37,758 nucleotides of DNA. It comes from Promethearchaeota archaeon (GTDB taxonomy: Archaea > Asgardarchaeota > Lokiarchaeia > Sigyniarchaeales > SOKP01). The position numbers and the translations under genes are program-made. The notes below the pieces were generated by a model that saw only the letters and a program-made list of their open reading frames with translations, searched no databases and was not told where the DNA came from. Of this stretch, positions 9,720-37,757 are shown one piece after another. The stretch is taken from assembly GCA_019058015.1 (NCBI GenBank), contig JAHLWH010000019.1:1-37758 (forward strand), written 5' to 3'. Every line of letters begins with the position of its first letter. Position 1 is the stretch's first letter.

Positions 9720-9734
9720 AAATCTATTAATCAG

Positions 9735-9863: not shown

Positions 9864-9895
9864 TAAAATTCTAAATTTAGAAAGTTAATTTTAAT

Positions 9896-11020: not shown

Positions 11021-11095
11021 AATATTTTCCTTTAAAAACATTCATATTCAAAAATAAATTTAATTAAAAATTATTTCTAGTTTTATAGTATCTCT

Positions 11096-11842
11096 TTAAA
11101 TTATCATGCCACCATCAACAGACAGGCTTATTCCAGTGCAAAATTCATTGAGAACAAGAAATAACACACCCTTCGCAATTTCTTCGGGTTTTCCTAGCCT
11201 TCCTAAAGGTTGGCGTGCAATGAATTGGCGTCTTGCTTCTTCAGGATCATCAAATTTTGCTAATCGTTTAGCCAGAGAAGAAGTATCAGTTGTACCTGGG
11301 CAAATACAATTTACTCTTATTCGATCTTCGATATAATCAATAGCCATGGCTCTCGTCATGGATAATACTGCACCTTTAGATGCGGTGTATGCAGCTCTTT
11401 CCTTGACTCCTTTTAATGCAACGGATGAAGCATTATTTACTATTGTTCCTTTAGTTTTTTTTAAATAAGGAATAGCATATTTCGATATTAAATAAATCCC
11501 ACGTACATTTACAGCCATTGTTTTATCCCAATCTTCAGTAGAAATATTGTCTATTCTCCCTGGAAGTACAATACCTGCATTATTAAAAAGAATATCAATT
11601 TTTCCATATTTTTCAATTGTTTTTATTATAATTCTCTTAGCATCTTCTTCTTTCGAAACATCCCCTTGAATAAAAATAGCATCACCACCCGAACTTTTAA
11701 TGGTATTCACAACTTTTAAAGAAGACTCAGATAAAGAGTTGCAACAAACTTTGGATCCTTCTTTAGCAAATAAGACAGCTGTTGCCCTTCCAATGCCCGC
11801 TCCCGCTCCAGTAATAATAGATACTTTTCCTTCCAATTTCAT
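11096..11842 (-). CDS. SDR oxidoreductase, BDH2/2-keto-3-deoxy-sugar-acid dehydrogenase-like
   Basis: TGAGAGIG, NNAG, YTASK; CPGTTDT-x-SL-x2-R...FIARQPLGRLG resembles BDH2/DHRS6-type SDRs; GGAGG Shine-Dalgarno. Confidence 0.88.
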   Translation of the reverse strand: MKLEGKVSIITGAGAGIGRATAVLFAKEGSKVCCNSLSESSLKVVNTIKSSGGDAIFIQGDVSKEEDAKRIIIKTIEKYGKIDILFNNAGIVLPGRIDNISTEDWDKTMAVNVRGIYLISKYAIPYLKKTKGTIVNNASSVALKGVKERAAYTASKGAVLSMTRAMAIDYIEDRIRVNCICPGTTDTSSLAKRLAKFDDPEEARRQFIARQPLGRLGKPEEIAKGVLFLVLNEFCTGISLSVDGGMII

Positions 11843-11874
11843 TATTTTCCCTCCTGTTATTAAAAATAGATTAA

Positions 11875-12672
11875 TTATAACTCAATAATTTTTCGCGCTT
11901 CAGAAGGATCAGCTACATCACGGCCCATTTCTTTACAAATTCTCACCATTCGAGCTACTAATTCCGCATTATTTTTTGCGGGAACTTCTTTCCTTATGAA
12001 AGGATAATCTTCAGTTCCAACACGAACATTCCCACCATGTGAAATAGCTAAGGTGGCGATTTTTGTTTGTTTTTCTCCCATAACACTAATAGTATGTAAG
12101 CAATTTTCTGGCATATATTTTATCCGATGTAAATATTCATCAGCTGTAGGAGGAGACCATGTGCCGCCAGCCCAGTTAAAAAATAATGTTAAGACATGAG
12201 GACTTTCAATTAAACCTTTCTCTATTAAATAGTTCAAATTCCAATATGATCCCGTGTGCCATACTTCCCACTCAGGTTTAATGTTAAACTCTCTACATTT
12301 TATACAATATTCTTCCAATTCTTCTAGAGAGTGAATTCGATTCAAGTTCACTTGGGTAAAATGTTCATCATGATGATTCAATATAATAGAAAGCATATCT
12401 GGTCTTGCTTCAAAATCTCCTTTTCTATCAGGGATAATATCACTAGACATACCTCCTTGAATTATTACATCACATTGTTCTCTAATTTTATTTACAATTT
12501 CAACCTCTTCTCCTCTAGGAAGATGTACATGAGCTATAGCAGCACCTGCCTCATAGCATTCTACTACATCTTGGATTAATGCATCAGTAGTTTCAGCCCA
12601 ATTTTTAACGTTTGGATAAATCCAAGAATTTGCAGTTGTAGCAGTTAAAATTAATTTTTCATATTCTTTCAT
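11875..12672 (-). CDS. Beta-keto acid cleavage enzyme (BKACE / DUF849 / Kce family)
   Basis: AGAAIAHVH Zn ligands, IKPEWEV, GGNVRVGTED; start ATG 12672 after GGGTGAT. Confidence 0.88.
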   Translation of the reverse strand: MKEYEKLILTATTANSWIYPNVKNWAETTDALIQDVVECYEAGAAIAHVHLPRGEEVEIVNKIREQCDVIIQGGMSSDIIPDRKGDFEARPDMLSIILNHHDEHFTQVNLNRIHSLEELEEYCIKCREFNIKPEWEVWHTGSYWNLNYLIEKGLIESPHVLTLFFNWAGGTWSPPTADEYLHRIKYMPENCLHTISVMGEKQTKIATLAISHGGNVRVGTEDYPFIRKEVPAKNNAELVARMVRICKEMGRDVADPSEARKIIEL

Positions 12673-12679
12673 TACTTTA

Positions 12680-13363
12680 TCACCCAATTTTTTGTTTTTT
12701 GAATTTTTTAATTAATGCTAATGTTCTAGCTATATTTCCTTCGATTTTTTCCCAATTTTCGGATTCAATATACTCTTTCGTTATTAATTTAGAGCCAATA
12801 CCAAGTGCAATGACTCCTGCATCAAACCATGCAATAATATTTTCTTCGTTTATATCAACTCCTCCAGTTGGCATTAATTTTAGCCAAGGCATTGGTGCTA
12901 ATATGGCTTTAGCAAATTTTGGGCCACCTAATTCACCAGCTGGAAAAATTTTAATTATTTCACATCCCAACTCCTCTGCTTTTGATATTTCAGAAGGTGT
13001 TCCGCAACCTGGACAATAGGGAATTCTTCTTCTATTACAAAGTTTGGCGATAGATGGATTTAATAATGGACCTACTACAAAGCTGGCTCCGTTGTTAATA
13101 TAAAGAGCAGCAGTATAAGGTTCAATAACCGATCCAACTCCAAAAATTAACTGTGGTTTTTCTTTTTCAAAATATTTAACAAGTTTTGTGAAAACATCAT
13201 AAGCAAAATCACCTCTATTTGTAAATTCAACAATCTTCCCACCACCTTTTGCAATACTCTCAACTATTTTTCGAGCAATGTCAAAATTCTTATTATAAAA
13301 TACTGGTACAAGACCTTGCTCAACAATTGTGTTATATACTTCCAAACTTGAAAATCTTGCCAA
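12680..13363 (-). CDS. eda: KDPG/KHG aldolase
   Basis: EFTNRG, GVGSV, PGCGTPSEI, Schiff-base KIFP, MPTGGV; TTG start. Confidence 0.9.
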   Translation of the reverse strand: MARFSSLEVYNTIVEQGLVPVFYNKNFDIARKIVESIAKGGGKIVEFTNRGDFAYDVFTKLVKYFEKEKPQLIFGVGSVIEPYTAALYINNGASFVVGPLLNPSIAKLCNRRRIPYCPGCGTPSEISKAEELGCEIIKIFPAGELGGPKFAKAILAPMPWLKLMPTGGVDINEENIIAWFDAGVIALGIGSKLITKEYIESENWEKIEGNIARTLALIKKFKKQKIG

Positions 13364-16835: not shown

Positions 16836-17162
16836 TTATACTACTAAATTTTTTTTATATTTTTTTAAAATTTTTACGATTTCTAATTCCGCTTCGGAGA
16901 TTCTATATTTTAAAGCAATATTTCTTTTTTTAAGTTCATCGATTATTTGCCATATTGATATACCCGCTATTTCCGCTGCTTTTCCCAAAGAAATTTTTTC
17001 ATCTATATAATCTTTAAGAGCATATTCAAGTTTTTCTTGAGCAATACTTTTCCATAATAATCGTCTTATCAATGAAGATTGCTCTTCTTTAAATAAATTT
17101 CGTAAATCATCAATTTCTTTTTTCAAATCATCAGGTATTACAATTGATATTTTATCTCCCAT
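16836..17162 (-). CDS. UPF0175-family putative antitoxin (RHH + HTH)
   Basis: ISIVIPDDL RHH strand; ISLGKAAEIAGIS-x-W HTH; start overlaps the end of the upstream PIN gene. Confidence 0.82.
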   Translation of the reverse strand: MGDKISIVIPDDLKKEIDDLRNLFKEEQSSLIRRLLWKSIAQEKLEYALKDYIDEKISLGKAAEIAGISIWQIIDELKKRNIALKYRISEAELEIVKILKKYKKNLVV

Positions 17163-17649
17163 ATTTTTCACCTTTTTCAATATATTCTTGAAGAATATCT
17201 GCTGATACCCAACTATCTTCAGCATAATTTTTTATATTTGATTTATATTCGAATAAATCAAACTTTTTTGAAATTAATAATTCGAACATCGTCGCAATAG
17301 TAGTTTGGAAGTTAATTCTTAATATTTGCGCAACATTTCGAGCTTTCTTGTCATCAATAATTAGAAGTCTATTCTGTTGTTTTGCTAATTCAAGCGCTTC
17401 TGTTTCACCTTTACCTAAATGTGGATATTGTGATTTTTCAAAATCCTTTAAATTTATCACAATTATTTTTTCCTCATTAATATATTTTTCAATAATATAA
17501 GATTCTGAGTAATTATTTTCTTTACCTTCAATAACCAATTCATTATAAACAGCCTTAGGAATTAAAATCTCATTAAAATGATCGATTACATAACCAATTT
17601 TGCCTAATTTTGTTAAATGAATTAATGGACTTGAATTTGAAATTACCAT
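17152..17649 (-). CDS. PIN-domain protein (DUF3368-type putative toxin)
   Basis: VISNSSPLI, IP-x-AVYNE, LGKGETEAL, IIDDKKAR. Confidence 0.85.
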   Translation of the reverse strand: MVISNSSPLIHLTKLGKIGYVIDHFNEILIPKAVYNELVIEGKENNYSESYIIEKYINEEKIIVINLKDFEKSQYPHLGKGETEALELAKQQNRLLIIDDKKARNVAQILRINFQTTIATMFELLISKKFDLFEYKSNIKNYAEDSWVSADILQEYIEKGEKYGR

Positions 17650-22432: not shown

Positions 22433-22936
22433 ATGGAAAGGATGTCGCAACTAAACTTTATGGATATTTATAAATTTTTACCAAAAACTAATTGTAAGGA
22501 ATGTGATTTGCCTACATGTATGGCATTTGCCTTAGCATTGGTTAAGGGTGAGAAACAGCCAAAAGATTGTCCTCCACTTCTCGAACCTAAGTATAAACAA
22601 AGTTTAGATAAATTAAATGAGTTATTTGAAGGGGTAGGAGTGGGGGGAAAAGACTTACATATTGATATTGATAATGAAAAATGTGATGGGTGCGGCGTAT
22701 GTGTGATTGTTTGTCCTGTTAATGCTCGATATTGTCCTAATTCTTTAAGTGGAAAATTACCAGATTTCCCTCCCAATGAATATCAATTATTTCAAATAAA
22801 AAACGGAAAATCAGAACTTTTAAATTTGGAATATTGTAGAAGATTAGAAGCAGAAGGACGAGAGCGTGAATGCCGAGTATGTGAAGTATATTGTCCACGG
22901 GATTCAATAGAAATTAAGTATTATACAGCCAAATAA
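22433..22936 (+). CDS. Fe-S protein: N-terminal CdhE/AcsC-type Fe-S domain fused to a FwdG-like 2x[4Fe-4S] ferredoxin
   Basis: LPKTNCKEC-x4-CMAFA...CP; CDGCGVCVIVCPVNA; C-x11-C-x2-C-x3-CP. Confidence 0.8.
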   Translation: MERMSQLNFMDIYKFLPKTNCKECDLPTCMAFALALVKGEKQPKDCPPLLEPKYKQSLDKLNELFEGVGVGGKDLHIDIDNEKCDGCGVCVIVCPVNARYCPNSLSGKLPDFPPNEYQLFQIKNGKSELLNLEYCRRLEAEGRERECRVCEVYCPRDSIEIKYYTAK

Positions 22937-22986
22937 CATCTTCAAATTAAATAATAATTATAACTTAAATTAATGGAATGATATAA

Positions 22987-24321
22987 ATGACTCAAAGTAC
23001 AAAAAATCAAGAAAGAATCCAGAGATTTGTGTGTCCTGGATGTTCATTATATTGCGACGATAATCAAGTCATATATTCCGAAAATAATGAAATTATCGAG
23101 ACTTATGGTTTATGCTTAAAGGGTTATAAAAAATTAAATGAAATTAATTCAAAAAATCGCATCAAAAAACCCTTAATTCGCAAGAATGGTGAGTTAAAAG
23201 AAGTATCATTAGATAAGGCACTAAATAAAGTTAAAGAAATTATTAACTCTTCCCAAAAATCCCTCCTATATGGTTTTGTTAATACAACTTGTGAAGCACA
23301 AATAAATGGAATATGGCTTGCCAAGAAAATAAATGGATTCATTGAGTCTAATGCATCAATTTGTCATGGTCAAACTTATTCGAATGCTATCGAGAGTGGA
23401 TTCCATTCTACTACATTAAATGAATGTATTAATAAAGCTGACGTATTTATATTTTGGGGTTCTAACGCTGCAGAGTCCAACCCGAAATTTTTAACAAAAA
23501 CAATTTTTTCAAGAGGTAAATTTAGAATAACGGGAAGAGAAATAAAAACATTAATTTTAGTTGATCCTCGAAAAACCGCGACTTATGGAGTTGCTGGAGT
23601 TCGGGATTTGTATATTCCTTTAAAACCTGGCAAAGATTTGGAGCTAATTCAATTTTTAAAAGATATGATTTTAAAGGAAAAATCCGAAGTACCAGCTGAT
23701 GGTTTTGTTGGTGTTGATAAACAGGATTTAAATCGTCTCATCCTAAATTTGAAAGGTTCAGAAAATGGTGTAATCCTTTTTGGACAAGGAGTAATTAATT
23801 CCAATCCTAATGGAAATGTTATAAAGGCTTTAATTGAATTGGTGGATTTGATTAATGAAACTTCTAAGAGAAGTCGTTTTTCAATTATTCCTATGACCGG
23901 GCATAATATGAATGGTTTTATCCAAGTTTCTTTATCTTTATTGGGAAAAATGGACCAAATAGAATTTTCTGATAACCAACTTATCGAATCAAATAAAGAC
24001 TTAATTTCTAAAATAAAGGATGACGAATTTGACATGTCCATTATCGTTGCTTCGGATCCAATATCTAATTTACCGATAACCCTAAGCTCCAAATTAGCAA
24101 AAAAACCCATAATTGCAATTGATTGCTTTATTACCCCTACAACAAAATTAGCTGATGTTATATTGCCCGTGGCAATTACAGGAATAGAAACTGATGGACT
24201 TGTGTATAGAATGGATAATATTCCTATGAATTTGCAAAAAATAATCGATCCACCAGCTAATCTGCCTTCTGATGAGCAGATTTTGCTGAAAATAATACAA
24301 AAAATGGAGGAAAAAAGATGA
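22987..24321 (+). CDS. Divergent formylmethanofuran dehydrogenase subunit B-like protein
   Basis: CPGCSLYCDD...C cluster motif, SICHG, WGSN, VDPR-x-T, GIE-x2-G-x2-YRMD; colinear with canonical FwdB at 28851..30167. Confidence 0.85.
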   Translation: MTQSTKNQERIQRFVCPGCSLYCDDNQVIYSENNEIIETYGLCLKGYKKLNEINSKNRIKKPLIRKNGELKEVSLDKALNKVKEIINSSQKSLLYGFVNTTCEAQINGIWLAKKINGFIESNASICHGQTYSNAIESGFHSTTLNECINKADVFIFWGSNAAESNPKFLTKTIFSRGKFRITGREIKTLILVDPRKTATYGVAGVRDLYIPLKPGKDLELIQFLKDMILKEKSEVPADGFVGVDKQDLNRLILNLKGSENGVILFGQGVINSNPNGNVIKALIELVDLINETSKRSRFSIIPMTGHNMNGFIQVSLSLLGKMDQIEFSDNQLIESNKDLISKIKDDEFDMSIIVASDPISNLPITLSSKLAKKPIIAIDCFITPTTKLADVILPVAITGIETDGLVYRMDNIPMNLQKIIDPPANLPSDEQILLKIIQKMEEKR

Positions 24322-24692
24322 AATTACTGTTAAGTACAATACGCGAGTTAAAATATGATCAAAAAATCCTTATTAATGAATTATCTGAGAAAGAGCTCAA
24401 AGATAATGTAGCTATCTGCTTAATTCATCCAGAAACATACAATAAAATTGTGTCAAAATCTGGAGTAAATTTAAAATTAACAACCAGTTATGGTTCAGTT
24501 GTTTTAAAGCCAGTTTGGGATGAATCTATTCCCTTAGAAATGATTTACATAAATAAATCAATTTGGGCTAATCAAATCACCGGGGATTTTAAGCAAAAAA
24601 TTCTTTTTAAAAATTTAGAGGTTGAAATTGAGCCAACGGAAGAGGATGTTCCAGAAATCTCTAATCTATTAGAAAAACTGAAAAATTTCTAA
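24318..24692 (+). CDS. Divergent FwdD-like (molybdopterin dinucleotide-binding domain) protein
   Basis: AICLIHPE, LTTSYGSVVL, IWANQI; ATGA overlap with the upstream B-like gene. Confidence 0.75.
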   Translation: MKLLLSTIRELKYDQKILINELSEKELKDNVAICLIHPETYNKIVSKSGVNLKLTTSYGSVVLKPVWDESIPLEMIYINKSIWANQITGDFKQKILFKNLEVEIEPTEEDVPEISNLLEKLKNF

Positions 24693-24708
24693 GAGAGGAA
24701 TTAAAATA

Positions 24709-26385
24709 ATGTCCAATTTAATTATAAAAAATGGGATTGTTTTTGATCCGATAAATAATATTTCTGGTGAAAAGAAGGATTTATTAATTGAAGCAGGAAA
24801 AATTGTTGATAAATTCAAACACACTAATCCAAAAGATGCAAAATCTATAGATGCCAGTGGTAAAACAGTCATCCCAGGCGCAATAGATATTCACACGCAT
24901 ATTGCCTCACAACAAACTAATAATATCCGATTATTGGGCTCAAAAAATAAAGAAGTTCTACAATTTTGGAATGGGCTTACACTGGATTACTTAACAAAAG
25001 AATATGTTCAAAAGGGGTATACTTTTATTGTTGAGGCAAATGTATTCCCATCCTTAGCCAAACAAACTATTTTTAATTTTGGTCAAATTCCAATTTTAGA
25101 TAAAGCAATGCTGATTAATGCCAGCAATTTATGGTCTCTTGAATTGGAATATCAGAAGGGAGATATTGAAAAATTGTCAATATTTATCTCTGACTTCTTG
25201 GATTTAATCAAAGGTTTTGGAATAAAGATATATAATCCTTTTGAAGCAGAAGAATGGGATTTTAAAGAAATCAGAGATGATATAACGACAAATGGTCGAC
25301 TTTATAATTTTAATGCACTGGACGTTTTCAGAAATATGACTAAAACAATTGAGCAAATTGGATTACCCCATTCCATCCATGCTCATATTGACGGATATGA
25401 ATCAAAGATCGGGGAGTTAAATGCCATAAAAGTATTAGAGGATATTAAAACTCAAGGACTCACACCAAATCAATCAAGTCAAACAAAAATTAAACGTTCT
25501 CAAATATTCCATTTAGCTCATGCATCTGCTTATTCTTTTAACGACGATACTAAATTGATTAATTTTTTCAATTCAAATGACAATTTTGACCTTGATTTAG
25601 GTTTTATAAGTTTCAATCCTATAAATCCCCTAATTACATCGGATAGAAGGTTAATTAATAAATATTTGGATAAGAAAAAAGCTCCTAAGAAGTACCCCAT
25701 AATTAAAGGTGCAATTGAATCTGAAGGGGATCATTTTGAAACTTTCAGGACACTAAAAAAAGATAATTCGGAGTATTGCATGCTCTGGTCAAATGCTTTA
25801 AATTTAGCTTTAAGGATAAAAGATAAATGGAAACTTCAATTTTCAATAAATTTTCCCAATTATGCCCATTTAACTGACATTCCAGAAATTATCTCATGGT
25901 TATTGAATAAAAATTCTAGGACCACTTTTATGGAAAATATGAATAATGAATTTAAACAAGACAATCCAATCTTTAATATAGAAGATACTTTTTCCATTAA
26001 TGATTTAATAATCATAACACGAGCAAGTCCAGCTAAATCTTTGGGCTTGGGAGATATAAAAGGAAATTTGGGTATTGGAGCCGATGCAGATATTAATATT
26101 TTAAATATAAATCTTCAAGAAAAAGACTCAGCTTCTCAAATAGATGAGATTAAGAAAGCTTTTTCTGATATAGATACCGTGATTAAGAATGGAATTATTG
26201 TAAAACAGGGTGAAAAGATAAATCTAAATCATAAAGGTTCACTTTATTGGTCAAAAGGCACAGTTAATACCCAAAATTATGAAAAAATTATGGATAAAAA
26301 AAAGGAATTTTATAAAAAATATAGCTCAATCTTCTATGAATCATTGAAACCAAATACTGATAAAATTAAGTTAATTAAAATATAA
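24709..26385 (+). CDS. Divergent FwdA-like amidohydrolase
   Basis: IKNG-x-VFDP-x-N, DIHTH, GIKIYNP, LPHSIHAH, TR-x2-PAK-x-LG, KG-x-LG-x-GADADI; the beta-8 Asp motif reads SINFPN. Confidence 0.85.
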   Translation: MSNLIIKNGIVFDPINNISGEKKDLLIEAGKIVDKFKHTNPKDAKSIDASGKTVIPGAIDIHTHIASQQTNNIRLLGSKNKEVLQFWNGLTLDYLTKEYVQKGYTFIVEANVFPSLAKQTIFNFGQIPILDKAMLINASNLWSLELEYQKGDIEKLSIFISDFLDLIKGFGIKIYNPFEAEEWDFKEIRDDITTNGRLYNFNALDVFRNMTKTIEQIGLPHSIHAHIDGYESKIGELNAIKVLEDIKTQGLTPNQSSQTKIKRSQIFHLAHASAYSFNDDTKLINFFNSNDNFDLDLGFISFNPINPLITSDRRLINKYLDKKKAPKKYPIIKGAIESEGDHFETFRTLKKDNSEYCMLWSNALNLALRIKDKWKLQFSINFPNYAHLTDIPEIISWLLNKNSRTTFMENMNNEFKQDNPIFNIEDTFSINDLIIITRASPAKSLGLGDIKGNLGIGADADINILNINLQEKDSASQIDEIKKAFSDIDTVIKNGIIVKQGEKINLNHKGSLYWSKGTVNTQNYEKIMDKKKEFYKKYSSIFYESLKPNTDKIKLIKI

Positions 26386-28033: not shown

Positions 28034-28846
28034 CTACCTCGCTACATATAATCTTCCTTTAGTTTTTGCACTTGTTGCATGATCTCCACTATATTCAATA
28101 AACTTACCTGAGATCTTTTCACCGTCTGGCAATTCGATTTCTGAAACTTCTCCAATTTTTTTAAAGGATGGCATTATCCTGCCGATTTTTCCTTTCACTA
28201 CGACGAATCCACGCGCTTGATCGGCAGCAACTCGAGCTTCCGCATTACCTTCACAAATAATTATACCTCCGTGATTATGAAGGCCGAAAAACTGACCTGC
28301 AGAACCACAGATTAATTTTGGGAACCTTTTTTTTGGAGTAGAACCTCGAGCCCAAATCATTGATTCATATCCAACACTTCCTTTAACTTTTATCACTCCA
28401 TTTGTCATACCTTCCCAATTCCCTCTATATGCAGCACCTACATAATTCCCCGCATTCCCTGTAATTTCTAATTCGCCTCCTTCCATCATTGCTCCTGCCC
28501 AATCCGCAGCATTACCATTCACTACAATTTTTCCTCCATTCATTGTATTTCCTACGTGCATTCCCACATCTCCATTAATTGTAATTGCCCCACCGGACAT
28601 TTTTTCCCCGATTCTTTTTACTTTTGACAAATTTCCATTTATCACAATTTCAATATCATCTAAATTATTACCAGCCGTGCCTTTAATATCAAAATAATCT
28701 TTAAGTGAAAGTTTTTCATTACCATGAAATATTATTAGATTCGCTATGTCTTTTTGTGTTTTACCTTTGAAGTTATCAGGGGTTATGGATTCTGCTTCAA
28801 GAGAAAAAGTGGGTTCCTTCTTTAAAGTTAATTCAATCTTTCCCAT
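28034..28846 (-). CDS. fwdC: Formylmethanofuran dehydrogenase subunit C
   Basis: EAESITPD, GXGXG beta-helix repeats, GAAYRG-x-W-x-GM; ATG 28846 after GGTGA. Confidence 0.92.
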   Translation of the reverse strand: MGKIELTLKKEPTFSLEAESITPDNFKGKTQKDIANLIIFHGNEKLSLKDYFDIKGTAGNNLDDIEIVINGNLSKVKRIGEKMSGGAITINGDVGMHVGNTMNGGKIVVNGNAADWAGAMMEGGELEITGNAGNYVGAAYRGNWEGMTNGVIKVKGSVGYESMIWARGSTPKKRFPKLICGSAGQFFGLHNHGGIIICEGNAEARVAADQARGFVVVKGKIGRIMPSFKKIGEVSEIELPDGEKISGKFIEYSGDHATSAKTKGRLYVAR

Positions 28847-28850
28847 TCTT

Positions 28851-30167
28851 CTACTCACCTTTTAACTCCTTTACTTTTTCAATTAATTTTTCTATAATCT
28901 CATAATCTGCCATACAATCTTCGGGAGCATTTTTCACTTTTCTCAATCTAATTGGCACTTTATCCATACGATATGCCGTTCCTTCACATTCAATCCCGGC
29001 AATTGCTGGAGGGAGAATTATATCTGCCATTTCAGAAGTCGGCGTTTTATGGGGCTCAACGGATATTAAAGGTTTTTTTAGCATATTGATTACAGCATCT
29101 TTTGGAAAATTTGAAGCGGGGTCTGAGGCCACAATCAAGGTAACATCAAAATCGTTTCTTTTTAATATATCTACTGCTGAAAACTCACCTGGATTATAGC
29201 GGGGATAATCTCTTGAAAAATCTATGGAATATGGGTAACCAGTTGTCCATGTAAATACAATATTTGCTCCTGAAACATTATAATGACCTCTCATTGGAGT
29301 TAAATTAAATTTAGTATGCTCATTCAATTCCCTGATAAGACTTATTCCTGCATCTACATTTCTATGCTTGCCTTTTGACATAGTTAAGCCAAGACCAAAA
29401 AATAATACACCGAACTTACAAGATTTAAGGATTTCAACAAGCTCTTTAATTTGCTTGATAGGAACTCCTGCTACTTCTTTAACATCTAATTCTACACCAC
29501 GACACATAGCTCTAATAGCATTAAACAATTCATAATCTTCGCCAGGATTTAATCTAATATGCATATCTGCCATTTGGGCGGTATGAGTTGTTCTAGGATC
29601 TACAACAATTATTGTTCGGTCAAGATGGCCATCTACTCTGAAATAACCGCGAATAAAATCACTATATCGACTCATATGCCTTGGATGAGCATGAACTGGA
29701 TTGGAGCCCCAAAATAAAACTAAATCTGCCCGATTTTTATATTCACCCAAAGTACTTGTTGGGCAACCAACATCTTGAATAGCGAGAAGTGAAGGTCCGT
29801 GACAAACAGATGCGGTATTATCAAGAACTCCACCACAAATTTCCATTAATTCAACAGCCTTTCGCTGCGCATCACATTCGGTTGAACTCCATCCATATGA
29901 TAATGGTCTCTTTGCATTTGCTAATAGCTCAGCGGCTTTATTTAATGCTTCATCCCAAGTAACTTTCTCTAATTTGTCATTATTTCTCATCATAGGTTTT
30001 GTATATCTGTGCTCTGACACATTCGATGAGAAAAATTTTGCAGTTCCTATAGCACAAGCATTATCTACTTCAATAATCTTATTATCTTCTAAAATAATTT
30101 TTAAATCATCACAAAGCGTCCCACAGAAAGGACAAACTACATCTTCAAAATTTTTAAATTTTTTCAT
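28851..30167 (-). CDS. fwdB: Formylmethanofuran dehydrogenase subunit B (W/Mo-pterin subunit), canonical
   Basis: CPFCGTLCDD, SVCHGPS, NPVHAHPRHMSRYS, PMRGHYNV, GTAYRMD. Confidence 0.95.
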   Translation of the reverse strand: MKKFKNFEDVVCPFCGTLCDDLKIILEDNKIIEVDNACAIGTAKFFSSNVSEHRYTKPMMRNNDKLEKVTWDEALNKAAELLANAKRPLSYGWSSTECDAQRKAVELMEICGGVLDNTASVCHGPSLLAIQDVGCPTSTLGEYKNRADLVLFWGSNPVHAHPRHMSRYSDFIRGYFRVDGHLDRTIIVVDPRTTHTAQMADMHIRLNPGEDYELFNAIRAMCRGVELDVKEVAGVPIKQIKELVEILKSCKFGVLFFGLGLTMSKGKHRNVDAGISLIRELNEHTKFNLTPMRGHYNVSGANIVFTWTTGYPYSIDFSRDYPRYNPGEFSAVDILKRNDFDVTLIVASDPASNFPKDAVINMLKKPLISVEPHKTPTSEMADIILPPAIAGIECEGTAYRMDKVPIRLRKVKNAPEDCMADYEIIEKLIEKVKELKGE

Positions 30168-30182
30168 TTACTTTGCCTCTTT

Positions 30183-30563
30183 CTATTTATAACTTTTAAT
30201 TATTTCTAATGCTGTAAGAATCCTTCCACTTTTTACTACTTCAACCTCTGCTTCCGTTCCTTTGTATGAGGGCATACCGGTGCCATATGTTTCGGAATTA
30301 ATAACAGCATTTGCCCAAGGACCCATTGGAATAAAGATAATGCCAGGATGGGGTCCTTGTTCTGAAATTTGAGAATATACAACCACTTCCCCAAATTTTG
30401 TAGTGACCTTGACAGGTGTTCCAATCATACAATCCAATTTTGCAAAATCGTCTTTATCAAATTCACAAATTGCACAAGCTTTTATATTTTCCCTTCCTAG
30501 CTTTTGACCTTCAAGGGCAACTCCCTGGTCTATGGTTCGACCGGTGGTTAGAAAAAACTTCAT
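30183..30563 (-). CDS. fwdD: Formylmethanofuran dehydrogenase subunit D
   Basis: TTGRTIDQG, FIPMGPWAN, GTGMPSYKG; ATGA overlap with the upstream gene. Confidence 0.93.
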   Translation of the reverse strand: MKFFLTTGRTIDQGVALEGQKLGRENIKACAICEFDKDDFAKLDCMIGTPVKVTTKFGEVVVYSQISEQGPHPGIIFIPMGPWANAVINSETYGTGMPSYKGTEAEVEVVKSGRILTALEIIKSYK

Positions 30564-31273
30564 TTTATTCCTTTCCACCCCCTTCTCATTATTTTCAATC
30601 GTTCAACCATATCTGGCCAAAACGGCTCGTTATAATCACCAGAATATTTTACTTCAGTAATTTCAAGCTTTATTGCACCTGTTGGACAAGCATTATCACA
30701 AGTTCCACAATATATGCATTTTTTATCATCAAGCTCAATCTTAGGAGATTTTTCCCAACCAGGTGTTTCTTTTTGTTTTTCTGGAAGCGTTATAGCTCCC
30801 GTGGGGCAAACATCAACGCAAGTAGAACAACCACCTGCACATTCTTCTATAACAATACTGATCTTCCCTTCAACATACTGTTTAGCTTGACGGCCAATTT
30901 TTTCACAATCTTTTAATTCAAATTCTAATTTAGGTAGTGCTTTCTTTTGAACTAATGGTAAATCAATAGATTCTACTTTCTCATCATTATAATAAATTGA
31001 GAGCGCAAAGAATGGGCACATATAGACACAAACTCCACAAAAACTGCATTTATTCGGGTCATATATGTTTGGAACAAGATCTTCAGTAGATAACTTTATT
31101 GTTGCACCTATTGGTCCTCTAGATACAGCTTCCATAGGACAGACTTTGGAACATACTCCGCAACCCACACATTTTGTTTTATCCAAATCAAGCTGAGTAC
31201 TTTCAATCAAATATTTTACTCGAACACTTTCCATTTCTTTTGTTATTGTCCTTGATATTTTTGGAAATGACAT
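30560..31273 (-). CDS. fwdF: FwdF-like polyferredoxin with four [4Fe-4S] motifs
   Basis: CVGCGVCSKVCP, CSFCGVCVYMCP, CAGGCSTCVDVCP, CIYCGTCDNACP; GPIGA after the first motif; operon position. Confidence 0.75.
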   Translation of the reverse strand: MSFPKISRTITKEMESVRVKYLIESTQLDLDKTKCVGCGVCSKVCPMEAVSRGPIGATIKLSTEDLVPNIYDPNKCSFCGVCVYMCPFFALSIYYNDEKVESIDLPLVQKKALPKLEFELKDCEKIGRQAKQYVEGKISIVIEECAGGCSTCVDVCPTGAITLPEKQKETPGWEKSPKIELDDKKCIYCGTCDNACPTGAIKLEITEVKYSGDYNEPFWPDMVERLKIMRRGWKGIK

Positions 31274-31327
31274 CTTTATTTCTCAACTTCTAATTATTAA
31301 TAATCTTTTTAATTTCTTTAATTAAAA

Positions 31328-31594
31328 TTATTTGATTTCTAACATTTGAACTATTTTTATATTAATTGCCTTTTGCGGGCAAATTTCAACACAAACTCCA
31401 CAACCGGTACAATTTATAGTTCTATTCTCCTCATATATTTCATTTGCATAGCCATTTTTAACTAAAATAACTGCGTTTTTATCATTTAAATAACCTTTTT
31501 CTTTTAATTGATCAAAATTTACAGGACATGAAACCACGCAATCGTTGCATCCTGTGCACAAAACCTTATTTACTTCAATTCTATAAACTTTCAT
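31328..31594 (-). CDS. fwdG: FwdG-like 2x[4Fe-4S] ferredoxin
   Basis: CTGCNDCVVSCPVN and CTGCGVCVEICP; size and operon position. Confidence 0.7.
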   Translation of the reverse strand: MKVYRIEVNKVLCTGCNDCVVSCPVNFDQLKEKGYLNDKNAVILVKNGYANEIYEENRTINCTGCGVCVEICPQKAINIKIVQMLEIK

Positions 31595-31597
31595 TAT

Positions 31598-32026
31598 CTA
31601 TTCCTCCATTCTTAATGGATTTGGTCCAATTTCTTTTAATTCTTTAACAAATTCCTTTACAATTTCTGTTAATTCTGCACCTTCGCTTGCAGAAACTTGT
31701 GTGTATTTGACCCTTTTTGGATTAACTCCAAATTGTTCAAGCATTTTTATAAATAATGGCATCTTTCGAAATGTTTTAAGATTCCCTTCTACATAATGAC
31801 AATCACCGACATGACAATGACTTACAAGAACACCATCCGCACCATTTTTTAATGCTTGAATTACCATTAGTGGTTCCATCCGCCCCCCACACATAACTCT
31901 TAAAATTCTTAAATTTGCAGGTCTTTGCATACGGCTCGTACCTGCTTGGTCTGCACCAGCATATGTACACCAATTACAGCAAATTCCTAAAATATAAGGG
32001 TCAAAATCTTCTTTCACTTTAGCCAT
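31598..32026 (-). CDS. mvhD: MvhD/FlpD [2Fe-2S] subunit
   Basis: CCNWCTYAGADQAG, RVMCGGR, GADGV, CHVGDCHY, SASEG. Confidence 0.93.
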   Translation of the reverse strand: MAKVKEDFDPYILGICCNWCTYAGADQAGTSRMQRPANLRILRVMCGGRMEPLMVIQALKNGADGVLVSHCHVGDCHYVEGNLKTFRKMPLFIKMLEQFGVNPKRVKYTQVSASEGAELTEIVKEFVKELKEIGPNPLRMEE

Positions 32027-32027
32027 T

Positions 32028-34034
32028 TTATTTACTCCCATTTTCTGTTTTTGCTAGTGGTGGAATGGCTGTATTGATCATAGCAAAAATTTGATCATCT
32101 GAAAAGTGATTCTGGACAATAGCATCTGATGGACAAGCCGCAGCGCATGTTCCGCAGCCTTTACAAAGAGCTTTATTGATAACTGCAATATTTTTAAATA
32201 CATCAAAACTTATTGCATTAAATGGACATAAGCTTTGACATGATTTACATCCGCTACATTTATACTCCAGAACTACAGAATAATATGGTTCGATTGCAAA
32301 TTCTCCCATTGCCATTAACGAAGCGGCACCAGAAGCTGCTCCTTTAGCTTGTGCTACAGCATCAGGTATATCCTTGGGTCCTTGAGCTACACCTGCAACA
32401 AATATACCATCTGTTAATGTGTCAACTGGACGAAGTTTCGGATGTGCTTCCATGAAGAACCCATCTGCAGAGCGTTGAATTGTCAATATTGAAGCAATCT
32501 GATCTGCATCATATCGGGCTACTAAACCGCATGATAAAACCAACATATCCAACTTAATTTCTATCTGCTTTTGAAGTAAAGTATCTTCAGCACGAACTAT
32601 AATGCTGTGATCTTCATCCTCATAAACTTCACCTATTCTGCCGCGAATATATTTTATTCCGAAATTTCTTCCAGCGGATTCATAAAATTCTTCATACCCC
32701 TTGCCAAACGCACGAATGTCCATATAAAAAATATAAATAGATGCTTCTGGATGCTTTTCTTTGTACTGTCTTGCTTGTTTGGTTGCATACATACAACAAA
32801 CACGGGAACAGTAATTATTTCCACCAGGGCGGAAGTTTCTACTCCCTACACATTGTAAAAACCCTATACTATGAGGTGGTTCTAAATCTGAAGGCCTTGC
32901 TGGTTTCCCTTCAAGAGGCCCAAACGAACTCAATAACCTTTCCATCTCTAACCCATTAATAACATTCGGATATTTACCGTATCCATACTGTTTTAATTCG
33001 GTAGGATCATATAAATCCCAACCGGTTGCAACAATTATTGTTCCTACTTTAATCTCGACATATTCAAGTTTATCATCAAACCTTATGGCATCCGGCTCAC
33101 AAACTTCCGGAGTTGCACAAATACCGCATTTTATACATTTTGTCATATCAATTGTAAATTCTCCTGGAACTGCTTGCGGGAATGGAATATAAATAGCCTT
33201 TCTTATTCCCAATCCCACCTCAAATTCATTAGCACATATAACAGGACATTCTATAGCGCATAAACCGCAACCCGTACATGCTTCTTGATCAACATAATGA
33301 GGTTTTTTCTTAATGGTTACATCAAAATTTCCTACATATCCATCTACCTTCTCAACTTCGGAATATGTCATAAGATGGATTTTTTCTTCCCTGCCAACAT
33401 CAACCATTCTTGGAGTTAAAATACATGCACTACAATCCATTGTCGGAAAGGTTTTATCTAATTGAGCCATATGCCCCCCTATAGTTGCCGTCCTTTCCAC
33501 CAAATAAACATCATATCCTTCTTTAGCTAAATCAATAGAAGCATTCATCCCAGCAATTCCAGCACCAATCACTAAACAAGCAGGCTCTACTTTTACTCGC
33601 TCAACTTCTAACGGTTTTAATTCACTTAATTTAGCAACAGCCATCCTAACGTGATCTTTAGCAATTTTAAACGCCCCTTCAGGATCATCTAAATTTACCC
33701 ATGTTGCATGCTCACGAATATTTGCCATCTCAAATAGAAATTCATTTACTCCTACCTCTTTAACCACCATTCTAAATGTTGGTTCATGCATTCGAGGACT
33801 ACATGCAGCAACAATCACACGATTTATTAATCCAGCTTCTATATCTTCCTTAATCATCTCTTGCCCTATACTGCTGCATATGAATTTATATTCCTTCGCA
33901 AGAGCAACATTTGGTAAAGTCTTCGCATATTCAGTAAGAGCAGGTACATCTATTACTCCAGCAATATTGATGCCACAATGGCATACGTAAACACCAATCT
34001 TTATTTCTTCATCATTTCTTAATGAATTAGACAT
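32028..34034 (-). CDS. hdrA: Heterodisulfide reductase subunit A (bifurcating flavoprotein)
   Basis: GVYVCHCG, GAGIAG, LDKTFPTMDCSAC, inserted ferredoxin domain, CVGSR, YCSRVCCMY, C-terminal 2x[4Fe-4S]. Confidence 0.96.
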   Translation of the reverse strand: MSNSLRNDEEIKIGVYVCHCGINIAGVIDVPALTEYAKTLPNVALAKEYKFICSSIGQEMIKEDIEAGLINRVIVAACSPRMHEPTFRMVVKEVGVNEFLFEMANIREHATWVNLDDPEGAFKIAKDHVRMAVAKLSELKPLEVERVKVEPACLVIGAGIAGMNASIDLAKEGYDVYLVERTATIGGHMAQLDKTFPTMDCSACILTPRMVDVGREEKIHLMTYSEVEKVDGYVGNFDVTIKKKPHYVDQEACTGCGLCAIECPVICANEFEVGLGIRKAIYIPFPQAVPGEFTIDMTKCIKCGICATPEVCEPDAIRFDDKLEYVEIKVGTIIVATGWDLYDPTELKQYGYGKYPNVINGLEMERLLSSFGPLEGKPARPSDLEPPHSIGFLQCVGSRNFRPGGNNYCSRVCCMYATKQARQYKEKHPEASIYIFYMDIRAFGKGYEEFYESAGRNFGIKYIRGRIGEVYEDEDHSIIVRAEDTLLQKQIEIKLDMLVLSCGLVARYDADQIASILTIQRSADGFFMEAHPKLRPVDTLTDGIFVAGVAQGPKDIPDAVAQAKGAASGAASLMAMGEFAIEPYYSVVLEYKCSGCKSCQSLCPFNAISFDVFKNIAVINKALCKGCGTCAAACPSDAIVQNHFSDDQIFAMINTAIPPLAKTENGSK

Positions 34035-34049
34035 TTATTTTCCACACCT

Positions 34050-34997
34050 TTATATCATTTGCTCTTTTATTTTTTGTATTAATGGTTGAATTGAAATAAA
34101 TGGGGGAACTCCTTTCAAATCATGACCAGCCACAAGCCCTAAATCTCCCGGGTTCATACCCATTGCTAATCCTAATAATTGATTGTAATAAATAATGGGA
34201 ATTTTATATGACTCGCCTATAATATCTTTAAATTTATCATTTACTTGCATTTGACCAAGATCCATTTGTAAATGACAAAATGGGCAACAAACTATACAAC
34301 AATCCACATTAACTTTTCGCATATTTTCAAGTTTTTCCCTTGTAAAATCAAGAGAAACCTCTAATGATGCTGTTCGGACGGCTCCTCCAGCACCACAGCA
34401 CATAATCTTATCTTTATAATCGATGCTTTTTGCACCCGTTATCTCAACCAATTCATCAAAGAATCTCGGTTCTTCATATTCCCCTCCCCAAGGCCTATTG
34501 GATGAATCTTTAAGAATATGGCAACCATAATGCACGCCAACTCTTAAATCTGGAAACTTAATCTTGATATAATCTTTAAGTTTATCAATACCAAAATCAT
34601 AATATAATACTTCAATTAGATGTTTAACCTCAATTGTTCCTTTGAATTCCCTCCCAATTTTCGCAAGATGTTTATTAACCATATCCCGTTTTTTCTTATC
34701 ATGCTTTAATAGATGATTTACTTCAAGTAGAGTTCCATAGCAACCGTTGCATCCCAGTGTAATATCTGCTTCATTCTCTTCGGCTATTGAAATATTTCGT
34801 GCTCCAATAACGAGCCAAGTTGTGATATCAAAACCCCTAAAAACCCCAGGAGCTGGACAGCAACTCGCACCTTGCATATCTACTAATTCAATTCCCAATT
34901 CTTTAAAGGTATTGCGAATGGATTGTTCAATAAAAGGGTATCTATTGGGAATAACACATCCTAGATATAATGAATATCTTAAGTTTTTTTCAGACAT
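34050..34997 (-). CDS. hdrB: Heterodisulfide reductase subunit B
   Basis: LGCVIPNRYP, SCCPAPG, CNGC, HYGCH, CCGAGG, CPFCHLQ (two CCG domains); start MSEK chosen. Confidence 0.95.
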   Translation of the reverse strand: MSEKNLRYSLYLGCVIPNRYPFIEQSIRNTFKELGIELVDMQGASCCPAPGVFRGFDITTWLVIGARNISIAEENEADITLGCNGCYGTLLEVNHLLKHDKKKRDMVNKHLAKIGREFKGTIEVKHLIEVLYYDFGIDKLKDYIKIKFPDLRVGVHYGCHILKDSSNRPWGGEYEEPRFFDELVEITGAKSIDYKDKIMCCGAGGAVRTASLEVSLDFTREKLENMRKVNVDCCIVCCPFCHLQMDLGQMQVNDKFKDIIGESYKIPIIYYNQLLGLAMGMNPGDLGLVAGHDLKGVPPFISIQPLIQKIKEQMI

Positions 34998-35132
34998 AAT
35001 GGTTTTTCTTTCTTTGATTAAATTGGGGTAAAACACATTCTCTGAACTTAAGTAATTAATTATTCAATTTGTATTAAAATTTTAGATTAAAAGATATACA
35101 AAATTGTGGAGGAAAGGTTATATTTTAAAATA

Positions 35133-36383
35133 TTATTTTAGATCATCTTCTTTTTGCATTTTTATGAACTGTATCGGAATAATTGAGCTCAGGGTAAGTA
35201 TTCCTACGACAACAAGTAGAATACCAGTATCTATGAATCCAGAAAGAAAAGTACCTAATGGTCCGAAAATAAGCATAGAAATAATTACCATTAGTGCAAG
35301 CATCTGATATTTATAGCTAAATTTATTTCCTGCAAACTCCATCATTAAAGAAACAAATGCAATATAGGCTATTGCATTTGGAATTAATACAAACATTCCT
35401 AATATGATTAAAGTCCAAAGATCCATCAGTGGAATACACATATCAAATAAACCAACAATAATTATTGAAAAATAAAGAATTTTCTTTCTATTACTATATT
35501 TCAACGCGATATTTATTAAGAGGTATCCAATAATATTAATGAAAGGCGCAAAAATCAGAAAGAACAAAAATATTTCAAAACATTCTTGACCAAACCTTTC
35601 CACTAACCATGGTTCGTAGGGAACTTGCACAAGTGCTTCTGAGAAGAAAAGGAGCAAAAATACACTTATACAAATGAAACTAAGTTTTAAATATGATTGA
35701 TCTAATGTTTTCATACTTTTCTTTTTAGAGATTTCTTGCTTTATACCTTTTTCTTCAAGGCTTTCTTGTCTATTTCCTTCATTAATAGTTTTATTATATA
35801 TAAAATAAGAAAGAATTATTAATGGAAATAGTGTGATTAATTGGAAAGTAAAGAGATTATTCCATTCGTTTATGTTATAAATATTATTAATAATTAAAAT
35901 ATAGGATAAATAAGCTAAAATATTACCCAATGAATTTCCAATTTGTATTAAGACAATTTTCCTTTTTTTCGTTTGAATATTAGGTGAAGTATCGATAATA
36001 TCTCCATCAATTGCAACATCGATTATTGATATGCAGAAATAGTTTATACTCCAAAAAATACCAAAAATAATCATAATTTGAATTGAAATAATCATCAACA
36101 GAAAACTGATAAATAGGCCAATACTACCCAAAAATATGTAAATTTTCCTTTTAGGATGTTGACCAGTTTTTTCAAAGGTTTTATCGGATATTAGTGCGAA
36201 TATCGGTTTAATTAAAAATGCTGAATATGAAATTAACTGAGCAAAAGCAATTTCTAATTCAGGAATTCCCAAAACCGTAATTAGTAGAACAGGTAAAAAA
36301 GTATTGAAAAACACTAAAAGGAGTCCTTGGACTAAATATCCAAAAAGATATGTTAGGCTATTTACTATTTTCATTTTATTCAC
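35133..36383 (-). CDS. MFS transporter (about 12 TM)
   Basis: KPIFALISD...RK loop, DVAIDG, central hydrophilic loop; GTG start. Confidence 0.8.
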   Translation of the reverse strand: MNKMKIVNSLTYLFGYLVQGLLLVFFNTFLPVLLITVLGIPELEIAFAQLISYSAFLIKPIFALISDKTFEKTGQHPKRKIYIFLGSIGLFISFLLMIISIQIMIIFGIFWSINYFCISIIDVAIDGDIIDTSPNIQTKKRKIVLIQIGNSLGNILAYLSYILIINNIYNINEWNNLFTFQLITLFPLIILSYFIYNKTINEGNRQESLEEKGIKQEISKKKSMKTLDQSYLKLSFICISVFLLLFFSEALVQVPYEPWLVERFGQECFEIFLFFLIFAPFINIIGYLLINIALKYSNRKKILYFSIIIVGLFDMCIPLMDLWTLIILGMFVLIPNAIAYIAFVSLMMEFAGNKFSYKYQMLALMVIISMLIFGPLGTFLSGFIDTGILLVVVGILTLSSIIPIQFIKMQKEDDLK

Positions 36384-36501
36384 TTAAATTAGGATAGGTG
36401 GTCAATGTATTTAATATTAATATCCAGTACAAAGAATTCTTTTTTGTTTTTTATTAAAAAGAAGAAAAGAATGCCCTTTAAAGAAATATTTAAAGTATAA
36501 T

Positions 36502-37062
36502 TTACTTTTTTTCCGCTTTTTCTTCTTTTTTAGCGTATTTTCCCCAAGCAATAGTTTTATCAAAGCCCACACTACTAATTAATTCTTGCACTTCTTTAAC
36601 GTATTTAGGATCCGTATGGACTGTTGGAGGAACTCTGTTTACACCATAGGATTCTCTCATAATGTTCCATTTTTCATCATTAATGGGAACCCCATGACCT
36701 GTATCATAGAACATCCTACATAAATTGAGATGATTTGGCAAAATATACCCTCTTTGAACCGCTAAATTTCTTAAGAATATAATCATATCTGTAATCGGCA
36801 GATTACGCGGACATCTTTCAAAACAAGTATAGCAAGTAGTACAGAGCCAGAGTTCTTTATCTGAGAGAACTTCTTCAAGTCCTAAAATCGCTTTTCTAAT
36901 TATCGAGCGTGTTCTCAATGCAGTCCTTCTTCCGGAGGGACAACCGGCTGTGCAATTACCGCACTGAATGCAAGCACCAATTTCCGCATATCCTGCTTTT
37001 CTAAGTTCATTAGAGATATCATCTTTAATCTCTAAGATTCGATCAGATTTTAAATCTTCCAT
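36502..37062 (-). CDS. hdrC: Heterodisulfide reductase subunit C
   Basis: CIQCGNCTAGCPSGR, WLCTTCYTCFERCPR, TGHGVPIN, PPTVH; GGAGG Shine-Dalgarno. Confidence 0.94.
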   Translation of the reverse strand: MEDLKSDRILEIKDDISNELRKAGYAEIGACIQCGNCTAGCPSGRRTALRTRSIIRKAILGLEEVLSDKELWLCTTCYTCFERCPRNLPITDMIIFLRNLAVQRGYILPNHLNLCRMFYDTGHGVPINDEKWNIMRESYGVNRVPPTVHTDPKYVKEVQELISSVGFDKTIAWGKYAKKEEKAEKK

Positions 37063-37073
37063 TTTAATCCTCC

Positions 37074-37757
37074 TTAAGTGAGTGTAGTAATAATTTTTTG
37101 TTTAGGAAGATATGCTTCTTGAACGGGATAATTATTAAAATTAATTGAATAATGGTCTCTCCATTTCTCTTTTATATCTTGTATTACAGATTTCATGAGA
37201 TCATCACTTACACTTGCTTTTGTCCAAATGGTATTACCAAGTGGTGTGGCTACAACCTTTCCATCTATTACAACGATTTTTCCATCTTTTATTGTGTAAG
37301 ATGCATTTGTGAATGCTTTTTCGATTTCAATTCCTTTATGTCGATTATCAGGATTGAATTTATATAGGCAAACATCAGCTTGAGCACCTACTCCAAGATG
37401 ACCTTTCTCCGCAAAACCTAGGCATTTAGCTGTTCCAGAGCGAGTACATTGGGCTAATTCATAAAGTGTTAATTCGGTATCCAAATTTTCTAGTTCTGTA
37501 GCTGAGCTTGCTTTGGGTGATAATTCTTCCTTAAGCAAGATATCTCTGGATTTCTTATCCATAAGCCATTTTATAATTCTTGGATAAAACGTAAAAGGTC
37601 CACCATTGGGGTGGTCGGTCGTCAACAGTACTTGCTCTTTATTTTTCACAGATAACAACAATTCCAATCCAATAGCCCATTGAATTGCATTCACGGCAAC
37701 CTTTGGGCTAAATATATATGGCACAAGTCCGGAGCCGCATTCTGCCTCTACTTGACC
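37074..37757 (-). CDS. fwdA: Formylmethanofuran dehydrogenase subunit A, canonical; 5' part outside the window
   Basis: Frame open to the window edge (GQVEAECGSGLVPYIFS...); QWAIGLEL, TTDHPNGGPF-x2-YP, YS-x-NF-x-NYPV. Confidence 0.93.
   Translation of the reverse strand, partial: GQVEAECGSGLVPYIFSPKVAVNAIQWAIGLELLLSVKNKEQVLLTTDHPNGGPFTFYPRIIKWLMDKKSRDILLKEELSPKASSATELENLDTELTLYELAQCTRSGTAKCLGFAEKGHLGVGAQADVCLYKFNPDNRHKGIEIEKAFTNASYTIKDGKIVVIDGKVVATPLGNTIWTKASVSDDLMKSVIQDIKEKWRDHYSINFNNYPVQEAYLPKQKIITTLT

Follow-up and report, generated by a model that had tools for sequence, protein, structure and literature searches.

A conserved Fwd-like gene cassette with altered active-site residues in a family of Asgard archaea

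A second set of Fwd-like genes

The stretch of DNA analyzed in the current study (the window; 37,758 nucleotides, contig C228) belongs to a 3.84-Mb metagenome-assembled genome of a Promethearchaeota archaeon (G000; GenBank assembly accession number GCA_019058015.1, contig JAHLWH010000019.1) that is 94% complete and has been placed in the Asgardarchaeota (Lokiarchaeia; Sigyniarchaeales). Next to a canonical set of genes for formylmethanofuran dehydrogenase (Fwd/Fmd), the window carries a cassette of four co-oriented genes that encode a ferredoxin with an FeS domain and three proteins resembling the Fwd subunits B, D, and A (Table 1). As reported in a preliminary description of the locus, the four open reading frames (ORFs) lack internal stops, the B-like and D-like genes are joined by an ATGA overlap at positions 24318 to 24321, and a fwdC gene is missing. 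A FwdC/FhcC homologue was found neither in the cassette of the window nor in that of any of 20 related loci, and the fwdC copies seen in the window and in these loci all belong to the canonical cluster.

Judged from the profile matches, the homology of the B-, D-, and A-like proteins to Fwd subunits is far beyond chance. The B-like protein scores above the TIGR03129 cut-off of 327.8 bits (the canonical FwdB of the window reaches 617 bits), and the A-like and D-like proteins stay below the cut-offs of TIGR03121 (392.75 bits) and NF042908 (175 bits), respectively.

The first gene of the cassette had been taken for fwdG, but this assignment was ruled out. Its product combines a PF04060 Cys4 domain at the N terminus with a downstream 2x[4Fe-4S] ferredoxin part that contains a long insert, its best NCBIfam match covers only the N terminus of the CdhE/ACDS (acetyl-CoA decarbonylase/synthase) gamma subunit, and the true FwdG is encoded in the canonical cluster. 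All cysteines of this FeS-domain ferredoxin are conserved among its orthologues, and it is likely the subunit through which electrons enter or leave. Since most orthologues begin at an internal Met (MDIYKF..., residue 9 in the window), the true start of the gene may be position 22457 rather than the ATG at 22433. The spacer upstream of the cassette is AT-rich.

Active-site residues

Residue numbers are those of the M. wolfeii enzyme of known structure (5t5i), with positions counted in alignments to 5t5i_B for the B-like protein (6.4e-82) and to 5t5i_A and 9sw6_I for the A-like protein (about 1e-62). According to the cited passages of PMC6926001, the catalytic residues of FwdB are Cys118, His119, and Arg288, and the tungstopterin is capped by FwdD. 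For FwdA, four His, an Asp, and a carboxy-Lys are perfectly conserved in the formylmethanofuran dehydrogenases studied in the cited part of PMC11656701, which assigns to the Asp the deprotonation of the methanofuran amine and to Lys64 a possible role as gate of the formate cavity.

The altered motifs quoted in the preliminary description are all present in the translations, and the changes fall on Arg288 of FwdB and Asp385 of FwdA. The B-like protein of the window retains the four N-terminal cysteines of the [4Fe-4S] cluster and, within the motif ICHG, Cys126-His127, which correspond to Cys118-His119 of FwdB; Thr304 stands in place of Arg288, with one residue deleted after it. The proposed rewiring of the B-like active site therefore stands with respect to Arg288 but not with respect to Cys118-His119, and since His119 is kept, the B-like protein of the window is less rewired than had been claimed, whereas the wider clade is more so. 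The best 120 90%-cluster representatives from a search of 5.8 billion proteins retain Cys118 and the four FeS cysteines without exception (120/120), and none has Arg288 (0/120), the position being Gly in 111 and Thr in 5 of the sequences. Position 119 is Gln in 112/120 and His in 6/120; the pattern C-Q-G prevails (108/120) and the C-H-T of the window's genus is a minority (5/120). In the 21 sequences of the family (the window and the 20 related loci), Cys118 is found throughout, position 119 is occupied by Gln (17) or His (4), and position 288 by Gly (18) or Thr (3). Cys or Sec, His, and Arg are found at these positions in the canonical controls, which comprise 13/13 named FwdB references and the canonical copies from Asgard archaea.

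The A-like protein of the window keeps His57 and His59 (His-x-His), Lys178, and the later His ligand positions, but Asn381 replaces Asp385, the neighboring His is a Phe, and the gate residue Lys64 corresponds to Gln69. The family-wide residue tables for the same 21 sequences show Asn (20) or Ser (1) at position 385, Gln (19) or Glu (2) at position 64, and the complete ligand set His, His, Lys, His, His in 20/21. Directly after the metal-binding His, the family A-like proteins share a new acidic motif, H-x-H-(I/V)-(D/E)-G-Y-E, and it may be speculated that (D/E)GYE could supply a substitute base. In the D-like protein, the canonical TTGRT reads STIRE in the window and (N/S)T(V/I)R in the clade, and the loop preceding the C-terminal strand is 3 residues shorter.

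Compared with canonical FwdABCDFG/FmdABCD complexes (5t5i, 7bkb, 8rja, and 9sw6), the cassette shares the subunit folds, a clear homology of B, D, and A, the N-terminal [4Fe-4S] cluster and Cys ligand positions of B, and the His and Lys ligands of the dinuclear site of A. It differs by the absence of FwdC and Arg288, the predominant absence of His119, the Asp385-to-Asn and Lys64-to-Gln exchanges, another ferredoxin partner, and an A-like and a D-like protein that fall under the family cut-offs. These comparisons bear on the simplest explanation of the locus, namely, an ordinary second Fwd/Fmd isoenzyme, e.g., a Mo versus a W variant, that makes formyl-methanofuran. Public records annotate all four proteins as formylmethanofuran dehydrogenase subunits, and the score of the B-like protein would suit such an isoenzyme. 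However, Arg288 and Asp385 are lost and FwdC is absent in 21/21 loci, whereas the canonical controls listed above retain the FwdB residues without exception. Moreover, in a quick-search tree of A subunits calculated with IQ-TREE, the A-like clade of the family falls outside a clade of all other FwdA-type representatives that has a support of 99 in the Shimodaira-Hasegawa-like approximate likelihood ratio test (SH-aLRT). An ordinary isoenzyme is therefore very improbable, and the tree check asked for at the outset placed the cassette proteins in no characterized Fmd, Fwd, or Fhc clade.

The bacterial formyltransferase/hydrolase complex Fhc (FhcABCD; 6s6y) is a precedent for a Fwd-derived complex whose function changed through the loss of catalytic residues (cited passages of PMC6926001). 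According to the same passages, FhcB lacks the Cys, the FeS domain, and the FwdD cap, whereas the site of FhcA, FhcC, and the Ftr-type FhcD are intact. That the cassette follows a different pattern had been recognized in the preliminary description, and the pattern is in fact the reverse, i.e., the FeS cysteines, Cys118, and the D-like cap are kept and the Asp of the A-like subunit is lost. The A-like protein is much closer to archaeal FwdA (212 to 214 bits) than to FhcA (82 bits), and no Ftr-type family was found among the window ORFs scanned.

Conservation and selection within the family

A search with the A-like protein against 200 genomes of the phylum detected an orthologue (48 to 94% identity) in 35 of the 40 genomes of the window's family. 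The order ferredoxin, B, D, A is the same in all 20 related loci fetched, with identities to the window of 57 to 97% for the ferredoxin, 47 to 94% for B, 25 to 94% for D, and 47 to 94% for A. Pairwise ratios of nonsynonymous to synonymous substitution rates (dN/dS) among three members of the genus are 0.10 to 0.15 for the ferredoxin gene, 0.11 to 0.19 for B, 0.20 to 0.27 for D, and 0.15 to 0.17 for A; the canonical fwdB, fwdD, fwdC, fwdF, and hdrA genes of the same genomes gave values of 0.04 to 0.27. The cassette is thus, as had been suggested, a maintained paralogous unit under purifying selection that is neither decaying nor specific to one genome. One family locus (L046) contains an extra 121-aa A-like fragment downstream of the full copy (positions 10542 to 10907). 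The sequencing runs listed in a run search were DNA runs from sediment, cold-seep, and vent metagenomes, with no RNA run among them.

Related clusters in Halobacteriota and other Asgard archaea

Full-length homologues of the FeS-domain ferredoxin (35 to 44% identity) are present in 65 of 201 sampled Halobacteriota genomes. The next gene encodes a FwdB-like protein in 31/31 loci, and a FwdD-like gene then follows in 17/31 short loci and 10/12 extended loci. To judge from 45 related loci, Methanosarcina carries one such cluster, which matches the published fwdG2B2D2 that Table 1 of PMC2838876 gives for M. acetivorans, M. mazei, and M. barkeri. The literature gives gene names only, and the term Fwd2-type module is defined here by features that the Asgard cassette shares with these clusters. 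The PF04060 ferredoxin comes first in the order ferredoxin-B-D, and the B subunit has Cys118 and the FeS cysteines but lacks Arg288 and, apart from minority forms such as that of the window's genus, carries Gln or Leu at position 119. In the Halobacteriota B proteins, Cys118 is found in 30/31 and Arg288 in 0/31, and position 119 is Gln or Leu (CQV, CLG, and similar).

The two forms differ in three respects. The Asgard cassette adds an A-like gene, which follows D in 21/21 family loci; an Arg that the Asgard proteins lack lies five residues downstream in the B2 proteins of Halobacteriota (NMRGF); and the B subunits of both groups form separate, well-supported clades. The unrooted B tree, which like the A tree is a quick search, contains three supported groups, comprising canonical FwdB (99), Halobacteriota B2 (100), and the Asgard Fwd-like proteins (93). 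Relative to the free quick-search tree, a constrained tree that unites all B subunits lacking Arg288 gained 4.14 log-likelihood units and was not rejected (p-AU 0.632), which is not proof of common descent.

Other Asgard families possess a looser version of the cassette, consisting of D-like and A-like genes plus an FeS-domain ferredoxin and a B-like gene. In 3 Asgard loci, an HdrA-MvhD fusion (788 to 799 aa) and a polyferredoxin separate the D-A pair from the ferredoxin-B pair. The B subunits of this version keep Cys-His and have Ile or Ala at position 288, and its A subunits have Asp or Asn. An HdrA (784 to 793 aa) is also found near the Fwd2-type cluster in 8/12 Halobacteriota loci (2 cut by the locus edge) and a polyferredoxin in 5. 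Within the cassette-bearing genome G000, neither an HdrA-MvhD fusion nor a polyferredoxin was found beside the cassette; the fusion gene is located on contig C183. G000 contains at least 10 HdrA-like genes or pieces (contigs C183, C134, C237, C125, C143, C72, C10, C136, and C228), the fusion on C183 being 784 aa long.

The proximity to Hdr genes recalls the Methanonezhaarchaeia strain YNP3N, for which a second FwdBD cluster with HdrABC, FwdF, and FwdG has been described and formate oxidation proposed as its role (cited part of 10.1101/2025.06.25.661132). Compared by description only, this cluster resembles the Asgard cassette as an extra FwdBD set beside Hdr that lacks A and C and was proposed to be repurposed; it differs by its proposed function as a formate oxidizer, and the cited part of the source describes no A-like subunit. 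By analogy, the B/D pair of the cassette could be a CO2/formate oxidoreductase without methanofuran chemistry that feeds or drains an Hdr-type bifurcating system. The genomic links to HdrA and polyferredoxin and the Cys-His of the B-like protein in the window would fit this function, and since no FdhA-type gene (TIGR01591) was detected at E <= 1e-60 in G000 (Methanospirillum has six), formate metabolism would need another enzyme. Nevertheless, such an activity is improbable, because Arg288 is missing from all clade representatives and His119 has mostly been exchanged for Gln, both residues being catalytically important according to the cited passages of PMC6926001, and because it would leave the conserved A-like subunit without a role.

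With the A-like protein as query, an exhaustive HMMER search against 1.84 billion representatives retrieved only 42 clusters at E <= 1e-30, and in the A tree, the family clade groups with Asgard-only degenerate clades (97 SH-aLRT). Among the sampled genomes, the degenerate A-like clade has only one member outside the family, in a genome of the same order (G162). There, a 507-aa degenerate FwdA-like protein is encoded directly upstream of a 776-aa HdrA-MvhD fusion (L254, positions 8990 to 12950; G162:C2), and no B-, D-, or ferredoxin-like gene was seen nearby.

Predicted docking and genomic neighbors

Structure prediction of the B-like together with the A-like protein gave an ipSAE of 0.94, versus 0.00 for the best control; three runs share >=86% of the contacts, with a predicted local distance difference test score of >=90 for the partners. 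The docking mark applied is reached by 58/80 solved complexes and 2/110 mismatched pairs, and since FwdA-FwdB complexes have already been solved, the pass may only show likeness. In B, the predicted interface comprises the segments immediately following the Cys126 and Thr304 regions, and in A that immediately following the His-x-His; as in the canonical enzyme, it would run through regions beside both active sites.

A NifX-like gene (PF02579) and two genes for MinD/CbiA-type ATPases with ferredoxin inserts are located directly upstream of the cassette and on the same strand in 5/20 family loci and further upstream in 4 more, and a divergent Mrp/NUBPL-type ATPase gene lies at about -1.1 kb in 6 others. 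The neighbor families were identified by Pfam on representatives only, the rest being assigned by BLAST clustering. Homologues of the first two neighbor types are found in G000 on the separate 2.7-kb contig C230. This neighborhood suits a metalloenzyme that needs maturation.

On the opposite strand, the cassette of the window faces a canonical fused fwd/hdr operon with the gene order fwdA, hdrC, MFS gene, hdrB, hdrA, mvhD, fwdG, fwdF, fwdD, fwdB, fwdC (MFS, major facilitator superfamily). The arrangement was correctly noted in the preliminary description, but the canonical cluster adjoins the cassette in only 2/20 related loci, both from the window's genus. A conserved link between the two was consequently rejected, and synteny gives no support for the suggested co-assembly with canonical Fwd. 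The N-terminal part of the canonical fwdA is located on another contig (C105), at its end, and a locus from the same order (L255; G162:C11) has a similar fwd/hdr gene order without the MFS gene, fwdB and fwdD not being seen there.

Two further regions of the window, both on the reverse strand, were recorded. The 150-aa ORF at positions 9318 to 9770 aligns with short-chain dehydrogenases over their C-terminal half only (profile positions 109 to 236 of 236); either truncation of the gene or a miscalled start is the probable explanation. Two small overlapping ORFs at positions 16836 to 17649, in which a UPF0175 domain and, with a weak match, a PIN domain were recognized, resemble a toxin-antitoxin pair.

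Table 1. Coordinates of the Fwd-like cassette and other features (positions refer to the window unless another locus or contig is given)
Feature	Position	Strand	Remarks
Four-gene cassette, FeS-domain ferredoxin / B-like / D-like / A-like	22433-26385	+	ORFs without internal stops
FeS-domain ferredoxin ("FwdG2-type"), 167 aa	22433..22936	+	Pfam PF04060 1.1e-14, plus Fer4 families
FwdB-like Mo/W-bis-pterin subunit, 444 aa	22987..24321	+	TIGR03129 3.7e-107, 358.5 bits
FwdD-like capping domain, 124 aa	24318..24692	+	NF042908 1.3e-12, 48 bits; PF01568 2e-06
FwdA-like amidohydrolase-fold subunit, 558 aa	24709..26385	+	TIGR03121 5.9e-90, 302.1 bits
Canonical fused fwd/hdr operon	28034-37757	-	Opposite strand to cassette
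True FwdG, 88 aa	31328-31594	-	In canonical cluster
MFS-transporter gene, between hdrC and hdrB	35133-36383	-	Inside canonical operon
NifX-like / MinD/CbiA-type neighbor genes	L043 12215-14576; L048 3491-6299; L046 4728-5579; G000:C230 1272-2640		

Discussion

From the homology, conservation, purifying selection, residue pattern, and kinship with fwdG2B2D2-type clusters, we infer the cofactor content, the formation of a complex, an electron path, and a changed substrate. On balance, we consider it probable that the four genes encode one metalloenzyme complex, i.e., the Asgard form of a Fwd2-type module extended by a FwdA-derived subunit, which would act as a redox enzyme on a substrate other than that of canonical Fwd. 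A cofactor-bearing complex is indicated because the ferredoxin clusters, the [4Fe-4S] cluster and Cys of the B-like subunit, the cap, and the ligands of the A site are kept and all four genes are under purifying selection. The loss of Arg288, mostly also of His119, and of Asp385 and Lys64 in turn makes the formation of formyl-methanofuran from CO2 and methanofuran a very improbable reaction.

In the proposed mechanism, electrons would enter or leave via the three Fe-S clusters of the FeS-domain ferredoxin and be relayed by the [4Fe-4S] cluster of the B-like subunit to a Cys-ligated Mo/W-pterin, with the D-like protein as its cap. The A-like subunit would dock on B in the manner of FwdA on FwdB and hold a dinuclear metal site. 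The complex more likely catalyzes a related redox reaction on another substrate, either alone or combined with binding or condensation, and its redox partner could be a ferredoxin or an HdrA-type bifurcating system.

Several observations weigh against this enzyme interpretation. Pterin binding by the B-like subunit would follow from the retained Cys, FeS residues, and cap, which sets a limit to the proposal. No A-like orthologue was detected in 5/40 family genomes, which have a canonical FwdA-level match or none, and in one further case, the A-like gene contains 2 in-frame TAA stops (G165:C453:2304-3899). A single family member (L056/G180) has a degenerate A-like protein whose metal ligands are lost, and the sister Asgard A-like clades lack most or all of these ligands (P0129, P0134, P0139, P0143, P0180, P0141, P0171, and P0165), so catalysis by the A-like subunit appears to be dispensable in related lineages. 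In Halobacteriota, an A-like gene was found in 0/12 extended loci (6 to 8 kb), showing that Fwd2-type clusters work without an A subunit, and the fwdG2B2D2 genes of M. acetivorans were poorly expressed on methanol and acetate (cited part of PMC2838876). Finally, the FdhA/formate dehydrogenase outgroup joined the long Asgard branch in the rooted B tree; this was judged to be a long-branch effect, and the rooting was therefore not used for the direction of evolution.

Many of these observations would be expected if the cassette encoded a pseudo-enzyme or scaffold without turnover at the pterin and/or the dinuclear site, serving as a structural or electron-wire module, e.g., as an HdrA-type adaptor. 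Second-sphere catalytic residues are gone at both sites, the nearest A-like relatives, the stop-containing copy of G165, the member L056/G180, and the Halobacteriota module without an A subunit all fit this explanation, and so do the frequent vicinity of HdrA in Halobacteriota, its position between the gene pairs of three Asgard loci, and the degenerate copy upstream of the HdrA-MvhD fusion in G162; FhcB is a precedent for a scaffold according to the cited passages of PMC6926001. A scaffold is nevertheless the less likely explanation. The ligand sets are held, with an invariant Cys118 and invariant FeS cysteines in the B-like clade, and the A-like ligands are maintained in all but one of the family sequences together with a specific Asn rather than random exchanges. 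The FwdD cap is kept, whereas FhcB has lost the Cys, the FeS domain, and the cap (same passages); genes of a cofactor-maturation type are linked to the cassette; and an electron wire would need neither a pterin subunit nor its cap.

If the cassette encodes the redox enzyme favored here, its broader classification can be suggested only tentatively. The Fwd2-type module may represent an undescribed class of archaeal Mo/W-pterin enzymes with a substrate other than CO2 or formate, to which the Asgard lineage would have recruited a remodeled FwdA with its characteristic Asn and (D/E)GYE, giving rise to a two-site, tunnel-linked enzyme that is possibly coupled to HdrA bifurcation. No published description of the Asgard ferredoxin-B-D-A cassette (G-B-D-A in the preliminary gene naming) or of the FwdB2 residue pattern was found in a literature survey that left supplements and many journals uncovered, and the FwdB trees in the supplement of PMC9012536 or gene tables in other sources could already show the paralogue.

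In archaea, the Wood-Ljungdahl and methanogenesis pathway starts with formylmethanofuran dehydrogenase, an enzyme that also serves as a model for CO2 capture. The current study describes a second module of Fwd architecture whose active site is systematically rewired and which is under selection across a whole Asgard family. Since the public annotation reads plainly "formylmethanofuran dehydrogenase subunits," metabolic reconstructions of Asgard archaea may be inflated. The three-gene form occurs in about a third of the sampled Halobacteriota genomes, including the genetically tractable Methanosarcina. The module suggests that carbon or energy metabolism includes a redox reaction not yet assigned, both in the closest archaeal relatives of eukaryotes and in methanogens and methanotrophs.

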